11,064 nt of DNA from Candidatus Firestoneibacteriota bacterium (GCA_038042445.1 JBBTED010000083.1:1-11064), one strand, 5' to 3'; shown: positions 1,326-11,064, counted from the stretch's first letter. Numbers and translations: made by a program. The notes: generated by a model from the letters alone, not told the origin.

Positions 1326-1354
1326 TTGACAAAATACAGATTGTTAATCATAAT
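1326..1354 (+). promoter_or_regulatory. sigma70-type promoter for the downstream operon
   Basis: TTGACA (1326-1331), 17-nt spacer, CATAAT (1349-1354), about 70 nt upstream of the ATG at 1425. Confidence 0.75.
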
Positions 1355-1424: not shown

Positions 1425-3830
1425 ATGGAAGTAACAGGAAAGTGCTATAGACTAAAGTTAAATGTAAAAACCAGTGAATGTATTATAGATGATTCTAAAG
1501 GTAATGTATTTTTTAAAACAAAAAGTTTAACTATGTTTTTGCCTCGTCTAAAAAATGAACCAAAAAAGTTTATAGTTAAAGGTACTCCTCAATTAAAAAT
1601 TACTGATGTCCAAAACTGCAAAAAAATTGCAATTGAATTTGATACTGAGGGTTGTTTTTCTAAAATCAGGTTGTTTTTTAACTGTTATTCTACACATTTA
1701 GAGATCTATTCTGAAGTTGTTTTAAATGGTGCAAATAATGTTACTGGGTGGGATATATTTAGTGCCAATAAGAATACACAGATATTAGGTGATTATATTT
1801 CTGGCTTATGTACTGGATCCTGGGTACCTCCTATACTAACTGTTAAAAGTATATTTAAAACCGAAGAAATAAAAAAAGGATTAGAAATAGAATTGGGTAT
1901 AGGTCAAAAAATCGAAATTGACAAGGAAGGCAAAACAATCATTGATGCTCCATATGAAGTATATGCACCCTCACCTATTGCTTATGTTTTTACTAAAGGC
2001 AGAAATAATCAATTTTTTATGGGTATAGATAATATATACGATGCAGATGCATTCAACTTAAAGATGGCAGATGATAAAATACCATTAGACTGGGTTTTAT
2101 ACGCTGGTGGTGATACTGGCGGAACCATATACTATGAAGATAAGACATTACTTGAATCTCCACATTGGATAATGTTTGGAGAAAAAACAGAGGAAAAACT
2201 TGATTGTTATAAAAGATGGGCAGATATACTTATATTACAAGGAAGAATTAAACCTAAAGAAAGGAAAAGGCACAGCTGGTGGACAGAACCGGCATTTTGC
2301 ACGTGGGGTGAACAATTTAATAATAATAAGAATAATACAAGCTATATTAAAAGGACTGATGATAAAATAGGATATGATTTTACAAAGATAGGACCAGAAA
2401 TATCAGAAGAAAATATTAAAAGATGGGCTGATATTATAAAACAAAAAAAACTTCCTATTAAAACTATAATTTTTGATGATAGATGGATGACAAGCTGGGG
2501 AGATGCAGAGGCATCTGATCGTTTTTTAAATATGCGAAAATTGATAGATTATCTTCATCAGAAAGGTTTTAAAGTAAGATTATGGTGGCTACCTTTAGGA
2601 GCATTTTCTGATTCAAAAACCTTTCGTGAACATCCTGAGTGGATTTTAAAAGCCAGAGAAGGAGGCGAGAAAATAAGTCTTAGATATAGAGCTAATTTAG
2701 ATTATACAAATCCTGAGGTGCAAGAGCATTTAAGACAACAAGTATACAAATTTCTATCGTCAGATAAAAATTGTTATAATGCAGATGGAATCAAGGTGGA
2801 TTATTTTATATTAGGTCCTCAATCAAGAAGTACAGGTGGATACTTTAATATATCCTGGGGTATAGGTCAGAAATTTCAGACCAATGTAATGAAACTCTTG
2901 TACGAAACCGCGAAGAAAATAAAGCCAGATGCTCTTATTGGCGGACCATCAAACAATCCATTTTTTGACCAGTATCAGGATTATGCACATACATTTGATA
3001 TAGATTCTTCTGATTACAACCAGCATTTGGAAAGAGCAAGAATGCTTTCAGCTACAAATACAGGTAGTATGATTGCTTGTATTAAACATGATTATTGGCG
3101 TAATAAGAATAGGTATCTGAATATGCAGGTTTTAACTGGCTTGCTTAAAGTCTACCATATCCAAAGAATGCATGGTGACGGAATAGTATTAAGTGATGAC
3201 GATTATACTCAATGGCGTGAAATTATGAATGCATATAATTTAATTAAGGATACAAAGCCAAGATTAGACTATCGTGATTTACCAAAAAGAATACTGTGTG
3301 ATACTTATGGAAGAATACATGCTCGTACATTTGATGACGATCAAACGCTTTTGGTATCAACTGGTAAGATAATTAGAATAGTAGCGACTAATCAAGGTTG
3401 TTCTATAAATAGAGAATGGGATGTCCGACTTTCGGAGTATGGATTAAAGGTAAGAGTTTGTTCTGATGATTGGGCATATTATGAATTAACAAATAAAGAA
3501 ATAAAGATTAAAGGGTTTATTTGCCAAAATGGAACTTTGGTAATAAATATTAAAAATGGAGTTTTACCTCATCTTAGTTTTGTATCTAACTCTATGGTTA
3601 TTATCAAGAAAGCCAAATATGATTTAGAAAAGAAAAAAATAGAGATAGAATATGAAGGATTGGAAAACAATATGACAGATATGGTTTTTAAGAATTTAGA
3701 TTTGCTGGGAAAACATATTATATTTAAATTAGATGGGGGAGAAATTAAAACAAGTAAAAGCAGTAAATATTTTAAATTAGAAAAATTGTCAACACTTGGG
3801 GTGCGTATTTTAACAGTTGAAAAGAAATAG
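1425..3830 (+). CDS. Clan GH-D glycoside hydrolase (GH36/GH31-like TIM barrel, putative alpha-glycosidase), no signal peptide
   Basis: Motifs FCTWGEQ, IIFDDRW, RFLNMRKLIDYLHQKGFKVRLWW, LDYTNPEVQEHL and ADGIKVDY (putative nucleophile Asp at 2799-2801). Start placed at ATG 1425 behind AAGGGGG rather than at 1383. Confidence 0.8.
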   Translation: MEVTGKCYRLKLNVKTSECIIDDSKGNVFFKTKSLTMFLPRLKNEPKKFIVKGTPQLKITDVQNCKKIAIEFDTEGCFSKIRLFFNCYSTHLEIYSEVVLNGANNVTGWDIFSANKNTQILGDYISGLCTGSWVPPILTVKSIFKTEEIKKGLEIELGIGQKIEIDKEGKTIIDAPYEVYAPSPIAYVFTKGRNNQFFMGIDNIYDADAFNLKMADDKIPLDWVLYAGGDTGGTIYYEDKTLLESPHWIMFGEKTEEKLDCYKRWADILILQGRIKPKERKRHSWWTEPAFCTWGEQFNNNKNNTSYIKRTDDKIGYDFTKIGPEISEENIKRWADIIKQKKLPIKTIIFDDRWMTSWGDAEASDRFLNMRKLIDYLHQKGFKVRLWWLPLGAFSDSKTFREHPEWILKAREGGEKISLRYRANLDYTNPEVQEHLRQQVYKFLSSDKNCYNADGIKVDYFILGPQSRSTGGYFNISWGIGQKFQTNVMKLLYETAKKIKPDALIGGPSNNPFFDQYQDYAHTFDIDSSDYNQHLERARMLSATNTGSMIACIKHDYWRNKNRYLNMQVLTGLLKVYHIQRMHGDGIVLSDDDYTQWREIMNAYNLIKDTKPRLDYRDLPKRILCDTYGRIHARTFDDDQTLLVSTGKIIRIVATNQGCSINREWDVRLSEYGLKVRVCSDDWAYYELTNKEIKIKGFICQNGTLVINIKNGVLPHLSFVSNSMVIIKKAKYDLEKKKIEIEYEGLENNMTDMVFKNLDLLGKHIIFKLDGGEIKTSKSSKYFKLEKLSTLGVRILTVEKK

Positions 3831-3839
3831 ATAAGTTAA

Positions 3840-3888
3840 GCCGATAAATCGGCAACTACAATGTATTTGTAGTTGCTCATTCATGAGC
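3840..3888. repeat. Inverted pair of GTAG-type REP sequences (REP doublet)
   Basis: The reverse complement of 3840-3859 is GTAGTTGCCGATTTATCGGC, and 3869-3888 is GTAGTTGCTCATTCATGAGC. Each is GTAG + TT + its own short palindrome. Confidence 0.7.
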
Positions 3889-3908
3889 AATTTTTGAAAA
3901 GGAGATTT

Positions 3909-4814
3909 ATGCAGAAGAAAAAAACAAATCAATCTAATGTATCTGTGCCAAATTGGATGGGGAGACATCCATTTTCACCAGAAGAAAAGAAAGTTACAGT
4001 AATTACAAGCGATAAAGAAGTTACAACCATTTATGGAGTTGAGGGGCATCAGGTAAGTTCGCAGATTTATATATCTACAGATAAAGTTAATTTAAGTGAT
4101 TTTGTTATACCAGCAGGAAATTACTTTGATCCGCCAGATATTCATAGTGGTGTAGAATGTTATTATGTTCTTCAAGGTAAAGCAATGATGCTTCATCCTG
4201 AAACAGGAAGGACATATCAAATAGTTAAAGGAGATGCATTTCTTATACCTGTAGGTGTATGGCATCAGGGTTATAATTTTACGAATGAGAATGTGAAAAT
4301 ATTATGTGGTATAGCGCCTAAAATCTGGGGAACTAATGACAAAATGGGTTCAGCAGTAACATATAAAGGTAAGTTTACTTTTTACAAATCAGAGGAAGAT
4401 GAAACAAATTTACCGATTAAATGGCAAAAACCGCATAAAAAAGATTATGGAGAAAAAGAATTAATTCATTTACCACCTTGTGAATGGTTGCATTTTATTC
4501 ATGGGAAAAAGAATCATATATTAGTTTCTTTTTTTGTAAGTAATGATTTAATTCATATGGGTAAAATAGTAATACCAGCAGGAAAAATTTCTGACCCAGA
4601 AGTTCATCAAGGAGATGAAGCAGTTTATCTATTAGAAGGTAAAATGACAGTGCGGATTTATAAAAGCGGAAACAGTGAAGAATCAATTTCGCAAGAGACT
4701 TATCAGATAAATAAAGGGGAAAAGATTTTAATTCCGGAAGGTGTTAAACATCAATATTTGAATTTTGGAACTGAAGGAACAGAATTTATTTTTGTAATAG
4801 CACCAAAATTATGA
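3909..4814 (+). CDS. Bicupin (two tandem cupin domains), putative metal-dependent enzyme
   Basis: Domain 1: IPAGNYFDPPDIHSGVECYYVLQG...GDAFLIPVGVWHQGYN. Domain 2: IPAGKISDPEVHQGDEAVYLLEG...GEKILIPEGVKHQYLN. RBS AAGGAG at 3899-3904 precedes ATG 3909. Confidence 0.85.
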   Translation: MQKKKTNQSNVSVPNWMGRHPFSPEEKKVTVITSDKEVTTIYGVEGHQVSSQIYISTDKVNLSDFVIPAGNYFDPPDIHSGVECYYVLQGKAMMLHPETGRTYQIVKGDAFLIPVGVWHQGYNFTNENVKILCGIAPKIWGTNDKMGSAVTYKGKFTFYKSEEDETNLPIKWQKPHKKDYGEKELIHLPPCEWLHFIHGKKNHILVSFFVSNDLIHMGKIVIPAGKISDPEVHQGDEAVYLLEGKMTVRIYKSGNSEESISQETYQINKGEKILIPEGVKHQYLNFGTEGTEFIFVIAPKL

Positions 4815-4828
4815 AGGGGTGATAAACT

Positions 4829-5821
4829 ATGAATTTAAGTAATGAGAAATTAATAGAGATGTATAGAAAAATGCTTGAGATACGATACTTTGAGGAAAAA
4901 ATTGGTGAATTGTTTGTATTAGGAGCATTAGCGTATGCCAGAGGATTTATACATCTTTATGTAGGAGAAGAAGCAGTAGCAGTTGGTGTATGTGCTGGGC
5001 TTCGAAAAGAAGATTATATAACGAGTACGCATCGAGGGCATGGGCATTGTATTGCAAAAGGAGTCCAGTTAAATAATGTAATGGCGGAGATTTTAGGTAA
5101 ACAAACAGGATGCTGTAAAGGTAAAGGTGGTTCAATGCATATTGCAGATGTAAATGTAGGAGTGCTTGGAACAAGTGGTATTGTAGGTGCAGGTATTCCT
5201 TTAGCTACAGGTGTTGGATTATCAATTAAGCTTAAAGGTAGTGAGCAAGTTTGTGTTTCCTTTTTTGGAGATGCAGCATCAAATACCGGAGCATTTCATG
5301 AAGCGATAAATTTAGCTGCAGTATGGAAATTGCCAGTGGTATTTATTTGTGAAAATAATTTATATGGTATTACTGTTTCAGCAGCAGAATCAACATCAGT
5401 TAAAGATATAGCAGATAGATCTAAAGGCTATGGTATACCCGGTGTAATTGTAGATGGAATGGATGTAATAGCAGTTTATGAAGCTGCAAGCGAAGCTATT
5501 AAACGTGCAAGAGAAGGGTTAGGACCTACTTTAATAGAATGTAAAACGTATAGATATAGAGGTCATAGTGTAATGGAACAATGGGCACAAGCATATAGAA
5601 AGCCTGAAGAAGTTGAGGAGTGGAAACGTAAAGATTGTATTTTAAAGCTTAGAACAAAATTTATCCAGACGAATATTTTGGAAGAAGAAAAGATTTGTGA
5701 TATTGAAAAAGAGGTAAAAAGTAGAGTTGAAGAAGCATCTAATTTTGCTTTGCAAAGTCCATATCCAGAAAATGAAGAAGCAATAAAAGATATATATGCA
5801 GAAGTAGAAATGTCATTCTGA
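4829..5821 (+). CDS. ThDP-dependent dehydrogenase E1 alpha subunit (AcoA/PdhA-like)
   Basis: GFIHLYVGEEA, STHRGHGH, GKGGSMH, ThDP motif GDAA...ENN and ECKTYRYRGHS. RBS AAGGGGTGA overlaps the cupin stop codon. Confidence 0.93.
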   Translation: MNLSNEKLIEMYRKMLEIRYFEEKIGELFVLGALAYARGFIHLYVGEEAVAVGVCAGLRKEDYITSTHRGHGHCIAKGVQLNNVMAEILGKQTGCCKGKGGSMHIADVNVGVLGTSGIVGAGIPLATGVGLSIKLKGSEQVCVSFFGDAASNTGAFHEAINLAAVWKLPVVFICENNLYGITVSAAESTSVKDIADRSKGYGIPGVIVDGMDVIAVYEAASEAIKRAREGLGPTLIECKTYRYRGHSVMEQWAQAYRKPEEVEEWKRKDCILKLRTKFIQTNILEEEKICDIEKEVKSRVEEASNFALQSPYPENEEAIKDIYAEVEMSF

Positions 5822-5874
5822 GCGAAGCGAAGAATCTCAATAAAACGAGATGCTTCATTCCATTCAGCATGACA
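5811..5874. repeat. Imperfect 28-bp inverted repeat (TGTCATTCTGAGCGAAGCGAAGAATCTC-type REP-like element)
   Basis: Arm 1 spans 5811-5838. Arm 2 (5847-5874, GAGATGCTTCATTCCATTCAGCATGACA) matches the reverse complement of arm 1 at 21/28 positions, with an 8-nt loop. Confidence 0.75.
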
Positions 5875-5920
5875 AAATGACGTGTTTACTAAATAATTTA
5901 AAAAAGAGGTGATATCTAAA

Positions 5921-6892
5921 ATGAAAGAGATACTTTATAGAGATGCAATTAATGAAGCATTGCGTGAAGAAATGCAAAGAGATAAAAGTATAATTGTAAT
6001 GGGTGAAGATATAAAATGGAGTATTTGGGCAACTAAAGGATTAGTAGATGAATTTGGAGAAGATAGAGTCCGAAATACTCCTATTTCGGAATTAGGTTTT
6101 GTAGGAGCAGCAGTAGGAGCTGCAATGACAGGAACAAGACCTGTTGTAGAAATAATGTTTGATGATCTTTTGCCAATTTGCTCAGAGCAAATAGTTAATC
6201 AGGCAGCAAGAATGCGGTATATGTTTGGGGGCCAGACAAAAGTTCCATTAGTAATAAGAGTTCCAGGAGGTGCAGGAGTATCAGGTGCAGGACATCATTC
6301 TGAAAGTTTGGAAGCATGGTTTATGCATATTCCGGGATTAAAAGTAGTAATTCCTTCAACACCGTATGATGTAAAAGGTTTATTGAAAACTGCAATAAGG
6401 GATGATAATCCGGTTATTTTTAAAGAACATAAACGGTTATATTCAACAAAAGGTGAAATTCCAGAAGATGATTACAGTATACCTTTTGGACAGGCAGATA
6501 TTAAAAAAGAAGGAAAAGATGTTACAATTATAGCGACTTCCTATATGGTGCTTGAAGCACTTTCAGTAGCTGAAACATTATCTAAGGAAGGAATAAGTGT
6601 AGAAGTAATAGACCCGCGCACTTTAGTGCCATTAGATAAAAAAACTATAATAGATTCAGTTAAAAAAACAGGTAAAGTTGTAATAGTGCATGAAGCATGT
6701 AAACGCTGTGGAATAGGCGCAGAAATAGCAGCAATAATAGCAGAAGAAGCATTTGATTATTTAGATGCGCCAATTAAACGAGTAGCAAGATTGGATGTTC
6801 CAATACCATTTAGCAGACCATTAGAAAATTGTCTTTTGCCCAACAAAGAAGATATAATCAAAGCAGTTAAAGAACTTCTTGCAATACGGTAA
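5921..6892 (+). CDS. ThDP-dependent dehydrogenase E1 beta subunit (AcoB/PdhB-like)
   Basis: MGED, RVRNTPISE (ThDP-activating Glu), HIPGLKVVIPSTPYDVKGLL, DDNPVIF, EVIDPRTLVPLD and DYLDAPIKRV. RBS GAGGTG at 5906-5911 favours ATG 5921 over GTG 5909. Confidence 0.93.
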   Translation: MKEILYRDAINEALREEMQRDKSIIVMGEDIKWSIWATKGLVDEFGEDRVRNTPISELGFVGAAVGAAMTGTRPVVEIMFDDLLPICSEQIVNQAARMRYMFGGQTKVPLVIRVPGGAGVSGAGHHSESLEAWFMHIPGLKVVIPSTPYDVKGLLKTAIRDDNPVIFKEHKRLYSTKGEIPEDDYSIPFGQADIKKEGKDVTIIATSYMVLEALSVAETLSKEGISVEVIDPRTLVPLDKKTIIDSVKKTGKVVIVHEACKRCGIGAEIAAIIAEEAFDYLDAPIKRVARLDVPIPFSRPLENCLLPNKEDIIKAVKELLAIR

Positions 6893-6910
6893 AATGGGAG
6901 GGGATGAAGT

Positions 6911-9900
6911 ATGAGGAATAAATTAAAAGTAGTTAGTGTTGTTGTATTATTGGCATTTGGTATTGTTTGGGCTGAGGAGAATACGTTTAAAATAGACAAT
7001 GGAGGATTTGAAGGGGAATTATGGAATTACGATAATAATTTACCAGCAAAAGGATGGCGATGGAATATAGATAAAGATGTGCTTTTTGATATAATAGAAA
7101 GAGATACAAAAATCAAGAAAGAAGGAGAAAGTTCATTACATCTTAAAGATACAAACACAGGAAAAACAAATGAAGGAATTTATTACCAATTAAATCGGGA
7201 AGAAAGCCAGTCATGTCTTGGAAAAACTGTTAGGTTGACTGGTTGGATAAAACAAATTATCGCTAAACCTGCAAAAGGAGTACGTATTGGTATTTCAGTA
7301 CTGACTACTTCTAAGAATTGGATAAATGAATTTACATATCCTGAAATTGAAGATGAAACAGATTGGACACAATATTCTGTAACTTTTAAAGTTCCAGATG
7401 ATATTGTAGCATTCAGAGTATTTGTATATTGTGCACTTGGATGGGGTTCAACTGGAGAAGCATATTTTGATGATTTGAAATTAACAATTTTAGACGCGGC
7501 AAAAATTGATGGACAGAAAGAAAATGTCATTACAAGTGATGTAGTTGCCGATTCATCGGCAAAAAACGAAACAATCTTAACACAAGCAGGCAGTCATTTC
7601 TATGTTTTTGATGATGCATTAAGACCAAATTGGATAAGAACAGGATGGGGTGGAATAATTTTAGATGAGACAGATTTAACAGCATACTCAGGAAAAAGAG
7701 GGATAAGAATTAAACCACAGGCAAATGCAAATGCATTATGTGGATTTAGATTTATAACGGATAGCAAAAACAGGATGCCTGATATGTTAGATTATTCTGC
7801 TAATAATGGCTGGTTAGAATTTGTAATAAAACCAGTACAGAAATTACAAATTAGTTTAACAAATAATGAAAAAACCTTTGTTTTTGTTTCTATGGAGAAA
7901 TATTTGCAACCATTAAAAGATAGTTGGTATAAAGCTAAAATACCATTAGAAGTTTTAACAAAAGGAGCATCACTTGATAAATTCAGTGGAATTTATTTTC
8001 AATTTTTAGAAAAGCCGAGTTCAGAGCAGATAGAACTTGATGAAGTCGCAATTGTTTCTGATAAAAACCTTCCAGAGCCAAAAGCACAATTAGATAAAAC
8101 TATAGAGAAATCACTAAAGAATATAATTGGAGAAAAAAAAGTTTGGACACAGGATAAATTTGAAAGGCCAGAAATAAGAAATGGAACTTTTTATATAAGA
8201 GAAGAGCCACATTTTTATATAGGGCCTTTTCACAATGATAGCGATATTGATTTTAAAGGTGAAAAATCAAAACGTGAAGGATACGGCAATATAAAATATT
8301 ATGATGAGCTTTTAACAGATAAGACGGCGAAAGAAATTGGTTTTACTTCTTTACAGTTAAGTTCTACGCCGATTGCACCTATGTTTTTGAAATATGATTT
8401 ACCAATAGGAACAGGAATATTGGATAAAGCTTTTTTTTATCCGGGTTTTTTAAAAGGGCTAAATGGAATGCCATTTGTTATTGACTATGCGAATATTGGG
8501 CTTTGGGATGGTTTGCCTGAAAACAAATTAGCCATTATAATAAAAGAAGGAAAATATACAAATGAAATTTTGCAGCAAAATACTGACTGGCATCAGTTTA
8601 TCCCTCTTTGCCCTGAACATCCAATTGGAATTGAAATTTATAAAGCATACTGGAGAACTGGAGCATATTTTACATTAAATAATTCCGGCAATCCATTTAT
8701 TTATGAATTAATTAATGAATCTGGATATAACTGTAGTTGTAAATATAATCGCGAGGAATTTGCAAAGCGAATGGAAGTAAGATATAAAACAATAGAAAAA
8801 GCAAATGGAATATGGGATGCAAAATTTTCTTCTTTTGCAGAAGCATCAGGTGTTGAAAAATTCGAAGAATATTTAGGGGTTTGGGTTGACTGGGCAAAAT
8901 TTATGGGAGACAGATATGTAGAATTTTTAAAAACCGGAATAAATGCAATCAGGGAAATAGACAAAAGAGAAAATATATATTTTACAGAACAGCCGGCAAT
9001 ATTCAATTTTAATTCTCCCAGAGGTGCAACATTAAATTACAAAAAAATTGCTGATTTGCTTGATGTAGTATGTATAGAAGGTGGAGTTCAATTTGGATAT
9101 TTTGAACCCGACAAAAATTCATCTGATATGGAAGCAGTATTAAATCAAAAAAACATTACGGGTATGTTATATCTTGATATGGCAACAGCATTAGCAAAAG
9201 GAAAACCAGTAATAAATAATGAATTATATTGTGGAAGATTTGCGAATAAATTACGTGTTCCAACAAAACGGGAGGATTTTATAACATCACTTTGGAGTGA
9301 AGTAATACATGGAAGTTCAGCTTCTTTTTTTTATTCATGGGATAAACGTTCATTTGACTGGAGAACTTTTGAAGAAGCAAAGAAAAATGTTCTTTATGGA
9401 GGATGGAGAGCTTTTTCAATGCTTAATCCTTATTCATATCCACCTGAGTCTCATAAAGGTATAAAAGACTTTGAGACAGAAATAGGGAAATTATCCAAAA
9501 TTGTTTTACCATACCCTCGTATAAAAGGAACTGTTGCATTGCTTTTTTCGTATCCAACTTTAAGAGCTTCAGCAATAACCCAGTTAGATACAGCAAAATT
9601 AATCATAGATTATTATTCTTCATTGTTATTTTTACATTATCCTATAGAAATTCTTTATGAAGAGGATTTAGTCAACACTGATTTAACAAAATATCAGGCA
9701 CTAATAATACCATTTATAGATAATTCCTATCCAGAAACTCTTTCCATAGTGAAATCTTATGCAGGAAAAGGTGGGATTGTTTTATGTAATACAGGAGCAT
9801 TTGATGCAGATGAATATGGTAAACCAATTAATTATAATGAATTACTCGGATTAAGAAAAGAGAAAATAGTTTCTTGTGATGATAAATTTGTAGCTGCAGA

Positions 9901-11064
9901 GCAAGGCTCTGCTATTAATAATACAATAGAAATTCCAATAAAAATTAATTATGAAATAATAACAACAACAGCAGAAGTATTATTGAGGACAAAAAACGGT
10001 AAAAACCTTCTTTTAAAAAAAGAAATCGGTAAAGGAAAAGTATATTATGTATCTGCTGATATGGAAACAGATGGAATTACTGCAATTTTGCCCAAGGTTT
10101 TAGAAAATGTCAAGAAATATGGTGAAGTAATCAATGAAAGTGGATATACAATTAGTAATACAGAATTTCAGATGTTAGACAGAGGTGAGACAAAATTGCT
10201 ATATTTAGTTGATTGGGATAATATTTCAAAATTTGCATTACTTAAATTATATAATACACCAGAAAAGGATTTTTATATTTGTGACCCAATAAAAGAAGAA
10301 ATTTATCTAAGCAAAAAAGGAAAGAAACAATGGACAAAGGACGAAGCAAAAAATGGAATATCAGTGATATTGCCAACACAAGTAAGAGTGGTTCTGTTAG
10401 CACAAGAGCAAGAGCCAAAAGGTTGTAAGGAAATAAGCATAGATGAGTTAAAATTAAGGTTTGATAAGATTGCAAAAACTGAAGTAATAGAGTCTGAGGT
10501 GCAAAAAAAAGAGCAAGAAGAAATCAACAAGCAAAAACTACAAGCAAGAAAATATGAAGGAGTAATAGCAGAAAAATGTTTTTCTGTAGATTTAACAAAA
10601 TATGTAAATATGGGATTTAAGGATGAAATAGATGGAGATAAGAAAGGTGGCTGGTTTGATCAGGGAAGTAATGATTTAAGGAATATGGTTCTTGGAAAAC
10701 AAGTTTTAGGAGGAGTTCCATTTGAAATCATAGATCCAGATAAAAACAATGGCAAATCCTGTATAATCTTATCTGGAGGTCCAAGACAATACTTTCCTGA
10801 TAAGATAACAGATATAAGTGTTAATAAAAAAGCAAACAAATTTTATTTTTTGCATACTATCGGCTGGGGAACAGCAGGAACATTATTTAGTTATGTAGTG
10901 CATTATGAAAACGGAGATGTTGTAGAAATACCTGTAGATAATGACAGTGAAGTTTCTGGATGGTGGGATCCAAAAGAAATTCCAAATGCCAAAATAGCAT
11001 TTGAGACAAATAATCTTGTAAGCAGTAATGTAGGACTATATTGTCACCTCTGGAAAAATCCGAA
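6911..11064 (+). CDS. Large secreted multimodular GH42-like (clan GH-A) glycoside hydrolase, 3' truncated (>1384 aa)
   Basis: Read manually; absent from the ORF track because it has no stop in the window. RBS GGGAGGGG, then signal peptide MRNKLKVVSVVVLLAFGIVWA|EE. CBM4/9-like NGGFE...DWTQYSVTFKVP...AYFDDLKL. GH42-like YELINESGYNCSC...RYKTIEKANGIW and KPVINNE. Trimerisation-like DLTKYQALIIP...GGIVL. C-terminal module VDL..YVNMGFKDE..GDKKGGWFDQGSNDLR. Confidence 0.85.
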   Translation, partial: MRNKLKVVSVVVLLAFGIVWAEENTFKIDNGGFEGELWNYDNNLPAKGWRWNIDKDVLFDIIERDTKIKKEGESSLHLKDTNTGKTNEGIYYQLNREESQSCLGKTVRLTGWIKQIIAKPAKGVRIGISVLTTSKNWINEFTYPEIEDETDWTQYSVTFKVPDDIVAFRVFVYCALGWGSTGEAYFDDLKLTILDAAKIDGQKENVITSDVVADSSAKNETILTQAGSHFYVFDDALRPNWIRTGWGGIILDETDLTAYSGKRGIRIKPQANANALCGFRFITDSKNRMPDMLDYSANNGWLEFVIKPVQKLQISLTNNEKTFVFVSMEKYLQPLKDSWYKAKIPLEVLTKGASLDKFSGIYFQFLEKPSSEQIELDEVAIVSDKNLPEPKAQLDKTIEKSLKNIIGEKKVWTQDKFERPEIRNGTFYIREEPHFYIGPFHNDSDIDFKGEKSKREGYGNIKYYDELLTDKTAKEIGFTSLQLSSTPIAPMFLKYDLPIGTGILDKAFFYPGFLKGLNGMPFVIDYANIGLWDGLPENKLAIIIKEGKYTNEILQQNTDWHQFIPLCPEHPIGIEIYKAYWRTGAYFTLNNSGNPFIYELINESGYNCSCKYNREEFAKRMEVRYKTIEKANGIWDAKFSSFAEASGVEKFEEYLGVWVDWAKFMGDRYVEFLKTGINAIREIDKRENIYFTEQPAIFNFNSPRGATLNYKKIADLLDVVCIEGGVQFGYFEPDKNSSDMEAVLNQKNITGMLYLDMATALAKGKPVINNELYCGRFANKLRVPTKREDFITSLWSEVIHGSSASFFYSWDKRSFDWRTFEEAKKNVLYGGWRAFSMLNPYSYPPESHKGIKDFETEIGKLSKIVLPYPRIKGTVALLFSYPTLRASAITQLDTAKLIIDYYSSLLFLHYPIEILYEEDLVNTDLTKYQALIIPFIDNSYPETLSIVKSYAGKGGIVLCNTGAFDADEYGKPINYNELLGLRKEKIVSCDDKFVAAEQGSAINNTIEIPIKINYEIITTTAEVLLRTKNGKNLLLKKEIGKGKVYYVSADMETDGITAILPKVLENVKKYGEVINESGYTISNTEFQMLDRGETKLLYLVDWDNISKFALLKLYNTPEKDFYICDPIKEEIYLSKKGKKQWTKDEAKNGISVILPTQVRVVLLAQEQEPKGCKEISIDELKLRFDKIAKTEVIESEVQKKEQEEINKQKLQARKYEGVIAEKCFSVDLTKYVNMGFKDEIDGDKKGGWFDQGSNDLRNMVLGKQVLGGVPFEIIDPDKNNGKSCIILSGGPRQYFPDKITDISVNKKANKFYFLHTIGWGTAGTLFSYVVHYENGDVVEIPVDNDSEVSGWWDPKEIPNAKIAFETNNLVSSNVGLYCHLWKNP

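Follow-up and report, generated by a model that had tools for sequence, protein, structure and literature searches.

In this study, a stretch of 11,064 nucleotides from a Candidatus Firestoneibacteriota bacterium (GCA_038042445.1, JBBTED010000083.1), which is the entire contig C83 of the assembly and is hereafter called the window, was analysed with regard to two neighbouring genes encoding the alpha and beta subunits (E1a and E1b) of a thiamine diphosphate (ThDP)-dependent E1 enzyme. The best explanation of the data, which is held tentatively and placed a little below even probability, is that this pair is a modular E1 cassette carried in glycan operons and using lipoyl, E2 (acyltransferase) and E3 (dihydrolipoyl dehydrogenase) parts encoded elsewhere in the genome. 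The open reading frames (ORFs) of the operon all lie on the plus strand, head to tail, and encode the following proteins: an AraC-family regulator; a glycosidase of glycoside hydrolase clan GH-D; a two-domain cupin (bicupin, 3909-4814); E1a of the AcoA/PdhA type (4829-5821; PF00676, 8.6e-93); E1b with a pyrimidine-binding and a C-terminal domain (5921-6892); and a secreted GH42-like glycosidase (GH42L). The bicupin and E1a genes are 14 nt apart, and E1b and GH42L are separated by 18 nt. An earlier note on this DNA had described the gene order and the 14-nt gap, and both were borne out by the ORFs and the Pfam matches. The embedding of the E1 pair among glycan-degrading genes, which the note had also pointed out, was confirmed and found to recur at least twice more in the genome (contigs C158 and C74). 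The source is a metagenome-assembled genome (MAG) of 2.81 Mb in 181 contigs, with 32% GC and a completeness of approximately 90%.

The evidence that carries this explanation comes from sister loci, which were found by tblastn of the window proteins against the genome and characterised with ORF maps and Pfam. Two further AraC-headed glycan loci run into an E1a gene at the contig end. On C158, the order is a PocR/AraC regulator, a GH130/GH32/GH43-like propeller, a split bicupin and the start of E1a; the two single cupins (180-1095) are 46-49% identical to the halves of the window bicupin. On C74, an AraC paralog with 75% identity to the window AraC is followed by a 607-aa GH-D paralog, a Peptidase_S15/PepX_C hydrolase, a PIG-L deacetylase and, again at the contig end, the start of E1a. 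Between the two E1a starts, 2 of 51 residues are different and the first 55 DNA bases are identical, which accounts for the assembly breaks. The other end of such cassettes was recovered on two further contigs. C66 (1779 bases) carries the C-terminus of an E1b, a free lipoyl protein of 77 aa and a BNR/sortilin protein, and C164 carries the end of a lipoyl gene (55 bases identical to C66), a hairpin, a 1409-aa GH42L paralog, a DeoR regulator and a GHL6/GHL10-like gene. Moreover, the ribosome-binding site and start region of the GH42L paralog on C164 align with window positions 6893-6960, so that the window lacks exactly the lipoyl gene: the sister layout is E1b, lipoyl gene and secreted hydrolase, whereas the window passes from E1b over 18 nt directly to the secreted hydrolase. 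Because the sister cassettes carry a lipoyl gene of their own, the window E1 is most likely still dependent on lipoic acid and not a stand-alone new enzyme.

The other components of a lipoyl system are dispersed over the genome. Genome-wide, one 2-oxoacid_dh catalytic domain was found, on C72 in the operon DeoR-E1a-E1b-E2-MFS, and one dihydrolipoyl dehydrogenase above the cut-off, on C128 with 565 bits; the earlier note had suggested looking for E2 and E3 genes in the genome. The E3 gene on C128 (L137, 457-4047) stands alone, with a divergent AraC-family regulator beside it and then a HEAT-repeat protein and a response regulator. One lipoate-protein ligase (LplA) is encoded on C36. Three lipoyl/biotinyl domains lie above E = 1e-10 in the whole genome, and one of them is the free 77-aa protein of C66, which bears a TDK motif. 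Up to six E1 pairs (the window, the two sister cassettes, C1, C72 and C18) stand against one E2. The 12 other genomes of the class have none or one E1a each; six of them carry one, at 48-51% identity to the window E1a, and none is window-like. In the actinobacterial supercomplex of pyruvate dehydrogenase (PDH) and 2-oxoglutarate dehydrogenase, a single lipoylated E2 serves more than one enzyme of the E1 type. The genome studied here is similar in having several E1-type enzymes and one E2/E3 set encoded elsewhere, which they would share, and it differs in the ratio of up to six E1 pairs to one E2, in the free lipoyl proteins and in the location within glycan operons.

The proposed mechanism would run as follows. 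The AraC-controlled operon would serve the use of a galactoside-type glycan, with the secreted GH42-like enzyme, which has a carbohydrate-binding module (CBM), and the probably cytoplasmic GH-D alpha-glycosidase flanking two enzymes that are likewise predicted to be cytoplasmic. After ThDP-dependent cleavage or decarboxylation of the substrate, the window E1 would hand over the resulting C2 or acyl unit to a lipoyl domain provided in trans, either on the free lipoyl protein or on the C72 E2. The cycle would then be completed by the single E2 core and the single E3 of the genome, and the whole would amount to a dispersed dehydrogenase with several E1s and one E2/E3 hub. More speculatively, the bicupin might convert a hydrolase product into the substrate, which would be a sugar-derived alpha-hydroxyketone (ketose) or a 2-oxo acid. 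A bolder version, in which bacteria insert the E1 pair together with a free lipoyl domain as a portable cassette into various operons for glycan degradation, where it oxidatively cleaves a C-C bond of a ketone derived from sugar in a lipoyl-dependent manner and yields acyl-CoA via one shared E2/E3 hub, is considered unlikely; as an example, a ketose made by the bicupin could be split into a shorter aldose and a glycolyl or acetyl unit.

If the favoured explanation is correct, 2-oxoacid and acetoin dehydrogenase complexes may be assembled from dispersed and exchangeable parts, with a single E2 and a single E3 serving several E1s and free lipoyl proteins, which matters for the way in which the "orphan" E1 pairs often met in metagenomes are annotated. 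Furthermore, should the substrate be derived from a sugar, carbohydrate catabolism would gain a ThDP- and lipoyl-dependent step that appears in no pathway map. Such a step would mean an undescribed route from sugar to acyl-CoA, a new architecture of many E1s on one hub, and a function for an uncharacterised bicupin family. Our literature searches found no description of such a cassette of E1, bicupin and glycoside hydrolases.

Several observations weigh against the modular cassette. There is no E2, E3 or lipoyl gene within the window, and 10 metagenomic E1 pairs likewise have no E2 or lipoyl match nearby. The earlier note had stated that no E2 or E3 gene follows the pair. This holds for the window but is not established for the operon, because the contig stops inside GH42L (approximately 25 codons short, judged by the 1409-aa paralog) and a lack of downstream E2/E3 is therefore not readable from the assembly. 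The sister cassettes are only partly assembled: approximately 1.7 kb of their E1a/E1b is missing, so that the pairing of C158 and C74 with C66 and C164 is not fixed, and the window E1 is only 54-56% identical to the sister E1 fragments. On C74, the PIG-L deacetylase occupies the place where a bicupin would precede E1a, and a hand-over of substrate from bicupin to E1 is thus not general. Conserved residues, discussed below, are no proof of the same acceptor. Finally, in a MAG of 181 contigs and 90% completeness, a mis-binned contig is possible.

At the level of the protein family, the window pair is close to well-known enzymes. E1a scored 389.6 bits on TIGR03182 (PDH E1 alpha), slightly below the cut-off of 393.85, and E1b matched PF02779 (1.8e-46) and PF02780 (3.6e-44) and passed NF006667 with 393.5 bits (cut-off 321). 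The solved structure closest to E1a was human PDH E1 alpha (1.4e-73), and the nearest E1a relatives among 5.8 billion proteins showed 60-66% identity, many of them being labelled Bathyarchaeota PDH E1 alpha. The window E1 therefore shares with AcoAB and PdhAB the fold, the two-gene alpha/beta layout and the catalytic residues, and a lipoyl carrier, E2 and E3 exist in the genome. The model scores and the fully canonical residues would also fit an ordinary dehydrogenase E1 for pyruvate or acetoin whose expression simply accompanies glycan use, with a bicupin whose job is unrelated and an adjacency that has no pathway meaning; the finding would then be ordinary. The closest annotated plasmid relatives, which include sigma-54/lpdA aco-like operons, are in line with that reading, as are the C74 cassette without a bicupin, the nine Spirochaetota bicupin loci without an intact E1 and the complete absence of the bicupin from 80 metagenomic E1 loci. 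However, the genome already possesses the C72 E1-E2 operon and, for pyruvate, subunits of a 2-oxoacid:ferredoxin oxidoreductase, the presence of which makes pyruvate oxidation independent of any E1. Moreover, three E1 cassettes lie within glycan operons of one genome, as compared with none or one E1a in the 12 class relatives, and the bicupin is found 14-25 nt from E1a twice in this genome and adjacent to E1a in another phylum. The window operon also departs from the AcoAB/PdhAB pattern in having no E2/E3, in its position between glycoside hydrolases, in its AraC regulation, in the bicupin ahead of E1a and in being one of several copies of a multiplied cassette. A plain E1, serving for example to raise NAD-linked acetyl-CoA formation, is regarded as rather unlikely.

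The distribution of E1 pairs without E2 was assessed with 80 metagenomic loci whose E1a relatives have 46-62% identity, and 87 full-length E1a rows were scored, including four from the source genome and three from an Actinomycetota MAG. An E2 or lipoyl match was located within 3.5 kb of E1a in 33 of the 87 rows and was lacking in 15, and 39 rows were too short. Hence, among the 48 rows with enough flank (at least 3.5 kb downstream), 15 had no such match, 10 of them metagenomic, and these often lie near sugar transporters, kinases, alcohol dehydrogenases or short-chain dehydrogenases (ADH/SDR) and split transketolases. Together with the absence of E2/E3 from the 11-kb contig, and with a bicupin-E1a-E1b order in a second phylum that continues into a C_GCAxxG_C_C protein instead of E2, these rows speak for the view of the earlier note, namely that the E1 pair needs no E2/E3 and that the bicupin makes an unusual keto sugar, which the pair converts by ThDP-dependent cleavage, decarboxylation or C2 transfer, as has been proposed for pairs of the AviB1/AviB2 type. 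E1 pairs of sugar biosynthesis that work without E2 have been described in print (PMC4753412, PMC4425429). The source genome itself has a candidate of this kind, which is likely an AviB1/B2-like E1 of the branched-sugar type: a divergent pair on C18 (L008, 6768-12601) in a cluster of a GHMP kinase, E1a, E1b, a NUDIX protein and a DegT aminotransferase, upstream of which lie two B12-radical SAM genes. Pairs of the AviB1/AviB2 and Pau types occur in sugar-nucleotide or antibiotic biosynthetic clusters, and the window pair resembles them in having a sugar context and no adjacent E2/E3. It differs from them in being canonical and in lying among hydrolases and an AraC regulator.

The comparison of residues argues against an E2-free enzyme. 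It covered the 77 alpha and 84 beta columns whose conservation in E2-linked rows is 90% or higher. The window E1a departs at 3 of the 77 (G149A, D250E and P270C), and the window E1b departs at 5 of the 84, every one of these changes being conservative. The E2-linked rows themselves have a median of 2 (alpha) and 3 (beta) changed columns, with maxima of 8 and 13, whereas in the C18 pair 18 alpha and 16 beta columns are changed. In addition, the window pair keeps every conserved His, Glu, Asp and Arg. By sequence, the window E1 is of the AcoAB/PdhAB type, with no hint of an altered catalytic apparatus or a lost acceptor. Given this canonical character, the E2, E3, LplA and free lipoyl protein encoded in the genome, the lipoyl gene behind E1b in the sister cassettes, and a contig that stops before the end of the operon, the E2-independent lyase or decarboxylase advanced in the earlier note was not upheld and is now judged improbable. 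On a quick maximum-likelihood tree of E1a, the E2-less rows were scattered (11 changes for 15 rows), which also tells against an E2-independent enzyme. The tree is weakly resolved, with 32 of 82 inner branches open, and leaves the window E1a without a robust place. By tree path, the rows nearest to it are L024, L036 and L029, and the flanked ones among them are E2-linked, since L029 and L036 (59-63% identity to the window) have E2 directly downstream.

The linkage of bicupin and E1 was examined across genomes, an intact E1a/E1b within approximately 7 kb of a bicupin being counted as linked. The bicupin family is present in 2 of 99 genomes of the phylum. In the source genome, both bicupin loci are linked and adjacent, 14-25 nt from E1a, and in a second genome of the same class (G017) neither of two loci is linked. 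An Actinomycetota MAG (G100) has four bicupin loci, three of which are linked, one by direct adjacency (L011) and two at distances of 2.6 kb (L113) and 6 kb (L112). No linkage was seen at the two loci of a Spirochaetota MAG (G099) or at nine loci of six further Spirochaetota genomes, one of which (L129) has an 81-aa E1a remnant beside the bicupin. In total, 5 of 19 bicupin loci in 2 of 10 genomes are linked, and none of the 80 metagenomic E1 loci contains a bicupin. The neighbourhood for which the note had suggested a search thus recurs in a second phylum and is missing from the Spirochaetota and G017 loci. A test for a single clade of the bicupin-linked E1a (window, L011, L112 and L113) gave a p-AU of 0.366, by which one clade is neither rejected nor shown. 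The bicupin-E1 linkage is real, having either originated or been retained in two lineages far apart from each other; even within the source genome, it is not obligatory.

The surroundings of these loci differ between the groups. In the Actinomycetota MAG, the neighbours include a SorC regulator, TIM, PFK- and FGGY-type kinases, a transketolase, RhaA, DhaK/L and a GFO/IDH/MocA oxidoreductase. Directly after E1b lies the C_GCAxxG_C_C "redox-active" protein and not an E2; in this MAG, too, only one E2 and one E3 exceed the cut-off, each located apart from the E1 pairs. Among the Spirochaetota, the neighbours vary and include a glycyl-radical enzyme, MTTB, and glyoxalases with alcohol dehydrogenases. 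In three Spirochaetota loci (L130, L132 and L133), the bicupin homologue is divergent to a conserved triad of DUF4954/DUF6819, HMGL-like and glucosamine-6-phosphate-isomerase-like (NagB-like) genes.

The bicupin has two Cupin_2/Cupin_1 domains (PF07883 at 3.5e-22 in two stretches, plus PF00190) and no family-level match in Pfam or NCBIfam. A word search gave 13 clusters of the family, and a HMMER search of 1.84 billion representatives gave 311 clusters at E <= 1e-10, of which 96 reached E <= 1e-30. Numerous members are split into two single-cupin genes; in the Actinomycetota loci L104, L106 and L108, the bicupin is split or read with an in-frame stop (TAG) between the halves. Among the longer proteins, no fusion of the bicupin to other domains was found, which is weak evidence. 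An identical bicupin is also present on a 79.5-kb contig of a longer assembly. The family is marked by a conserved N-terminal PFPP-x-KKP lead that is specific to it, and by conserved metal-type ligands, which are D89/H91/E95/H131 in barrel 1 and H245/E249/H293 in barrel 2, the first ligand of the HxH motif being Asp89 and Glu243, respectively. Both metal sites are apparently intact, as judged from these residues. An AF2 model showed two barrels (pLDDT 90.9), and Foldseek with this model returned generic bicupins (oxalate decarboxylase, MncA, BacB, AerE and YxaG) with TM 0.53-0.61, 13-20% identity and E of approximately 1e-14. This fold class includes proteins such as OxdC, BacB, AerE and the quercetinase YxaG, which bind oxo acids or dicarboxylates on a metal. 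A sequence search of the PDB gave only weak single-cupin matches and no OxdC. OxdC has HxH...E...H Mn sites in both barrels, and membership of the window bicupin in the oxalate decarboxylase family was rejected on account of the replaced first His of HxH in both barrels and the 13-15% identity. The likeness to OxdC, BacB, AerE and YxaG thus lies in the two-barrel cupin fold, and the difference lies in the low identity, the Asp or Glu at the first HxH position and the PFPP-x-KKP lead.

Pathways of myo-inositol and uronates pair a cupin isomerase (IolB or KduI) with later C-C or redox steps, and IolD is a ThDP enzyme. By analogy, the window bicupin might be such an isomerase feeding a later enzyme, and GFO/IDH/MocA, kinase and TIM genes lie near bicupins elsewhere. 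In contrast to those systems, however, the window bicupin matches no KduI or IolB model of Pfam and reaches only 22.1 bits on MPI_cupin_dom, below the cut-off of 27, so that a relationship to cupin sugar isomerases would be a distant one, and IolD belongs to another ThDP family.

The two hydrolases are distant relatives of known families. The GH-D glycosidase (1425-3830) has an ORF that is open from 1383, and a GGGGG ribosome-binding site favours the start at 1425. It matched PF01055 (3.2e-12, 46.9 bits) and PF02065 (9.6e-11, 41.7 bits) above the cut-off over residues 330-473 only. In the PDB, it matched GH31/GH36 alpha-galactosidases (best 4.2e-10); its neighbours in the PDB and the Atlas comprise alpha-galactosidases as well as an alpha-galactosaminidase, those in the Atlas being of clan GH-D. 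By these matches, it is classified as a clan GH-D enzyme, GH31/GH36 alpha-galactosidase-like, and by its lack of a visible signal peptide as cytoplasmic. GH42L (6911-11062, 3' end cut by the contig end; at least 1384 aa) matched the GH42 catalytic model PF02449 (2.2e-10, 40.9 bits) and the GH42M trimerisation model PF08532 (3.6e-11, 43.4 bits) above the cut-off, and an N-terminal CBM_4_9 (PF02018, 4.3e-4); it had no NCBIfam match and only one PDB match, at 0.064. It is probably a distant and much larger relative of GH42. Its paralogs are numerous in the genome, and the 1409-aa one on C164 is 65% identical. A signal-peptide-like N-terminus is present on GH42L, and none is visible on the GH-D enzyme, the bicupin or the E1 subunits. 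As a plain guess from these family matches, the targets may be galactosides or L-arabinopyranosides. No sign was found in favour of the earlier proposal, according to which an unusual sugar (branched, keto or acid) is set free by the hydrolases; the enzymes look like distant proteins of the alpha- and beta-galactosidase type.

The state of the window genes bears on a further possibility, namely that this cassette is a decaying copy that has lost its lipoyl gene, has received a repeat element between E1a and E1b, and contributes no activity. The lipoyl gene of the sister loci is indeed missing. In addition, an imperfect inverted-repeat element of 64 nt on the plus strand (5811-5874) runs across the stop codon of E1a and extends the gap between E1a and E1b to approximately 100 nt. 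Its RNA fold has -22.8 kcal/mol (z = -3.98; 0 of 200 shuffles as stable), its 5' arm, which includes the last E1a codons and the stop, is found once more, on C112, and the element resembles a small mobile hairpin. However, all five ORFs are intact and have ribosome-binding sites, no frameshifts or internal stops were seen, and the conserved E1 residues are kept. Decay is therefore considered very improbable.

The other features of the window, all on the plus strand, concern mainly its expression. The C-terminal end of HflX (1-291) is followed by the AraC-family regulator (275-1168), which has a cupin-type ligand domain and HTH_18 (PF12833, 1.4e-19; PF02311, 6.5e-11). A terminator-like hairpin after it (1218-1238), with a 9-bp stem, 5 GC pairs and a T-rich tail, was obtained from a consensus scan only. 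The best sigma-70-like promoter match of the window (1326-1354, TTGACA-17-CATAAT, 11/12) precedes the first hydrolase. This location agrees with the earlier note, which had placed a promoter only before the first gene; however, matches of 10/12 also lie upstream of E1b and of GH42L, and the overall number of promoter-like sites (61) shows no enrichment over shuffles (56.3, sd 8). Downstream of the glycosidase stop and ahead of the ribosome-binding site of the bicupin, three short inverted repeats read off the sequence follow one another (3840-3888); they have no T-run and may be a site of RNA processing or stability. The bicupin ORF is open from TTG 3873, and ATG 3909 fits the called form of 301 aa; the E1b ORF is open from GTG 5909, with ATG 5921 as the likelier start. 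An Rfam scan at E <= 0.1 gave no matches, which indicates that the window contains no thiamine pyrophosphate or other riboswitch.

Several arrangements of related E1 genes were observed in other places. Members of this E1 subfamily frequently have the lipoyl domain encoded by a gene of its own or joined to E3. The latter is seen in complete operons of the metagenomic loci L030, L041 and L060, where the E2 lacks this domain and E3 (570-615 aa) carries it at its N-terminus. E1 alpha-beta fusions of 673-689 aa without an adjacent E2 occur in L027 (1233-3302), L028 (2264-4294) and L053 (1696-3717), and the fused gene adjoins octopine-dehydrogenase-like and MTTB-family genes in L028 and L053. In the metagenomic locus L074 (5762-13200), a free lipoyl gene and E1a-E1b lie within a glycan biosynthesis cluster with a nucleotidyltransferase, a 4,6-dehydratase, a hexapeptide acyltransferase, DegT and GT2, and this unit may act as an acyl donor for sugar decoration. 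On alphaproteobacterial plasmids of Rhizobium rhododendri (L159) and Nitratireductor thuwali (L160), E1a-E1b-E2 lies beside a glucitol-type phosphotransferase system, and these modules also carry a SorC-type sugar-binding regulator and an NAD(P)H oxidoreductase; the module is annotated, and no study of it was found. Within the source genome, the pair on C1 (L006, 7386-10824) belongs to an E2-less module of DeoR/ADH, a putative cyclase (PF04199), E1a and E1b, which is common to the metagenomic contig L039. The module of L039 is flanked by an inositol-1-phosphate-synthase-like gene and an FGGY kinase, and the E1a of C1 and of L039 pair on the tree with an SH-aLRT of 86.

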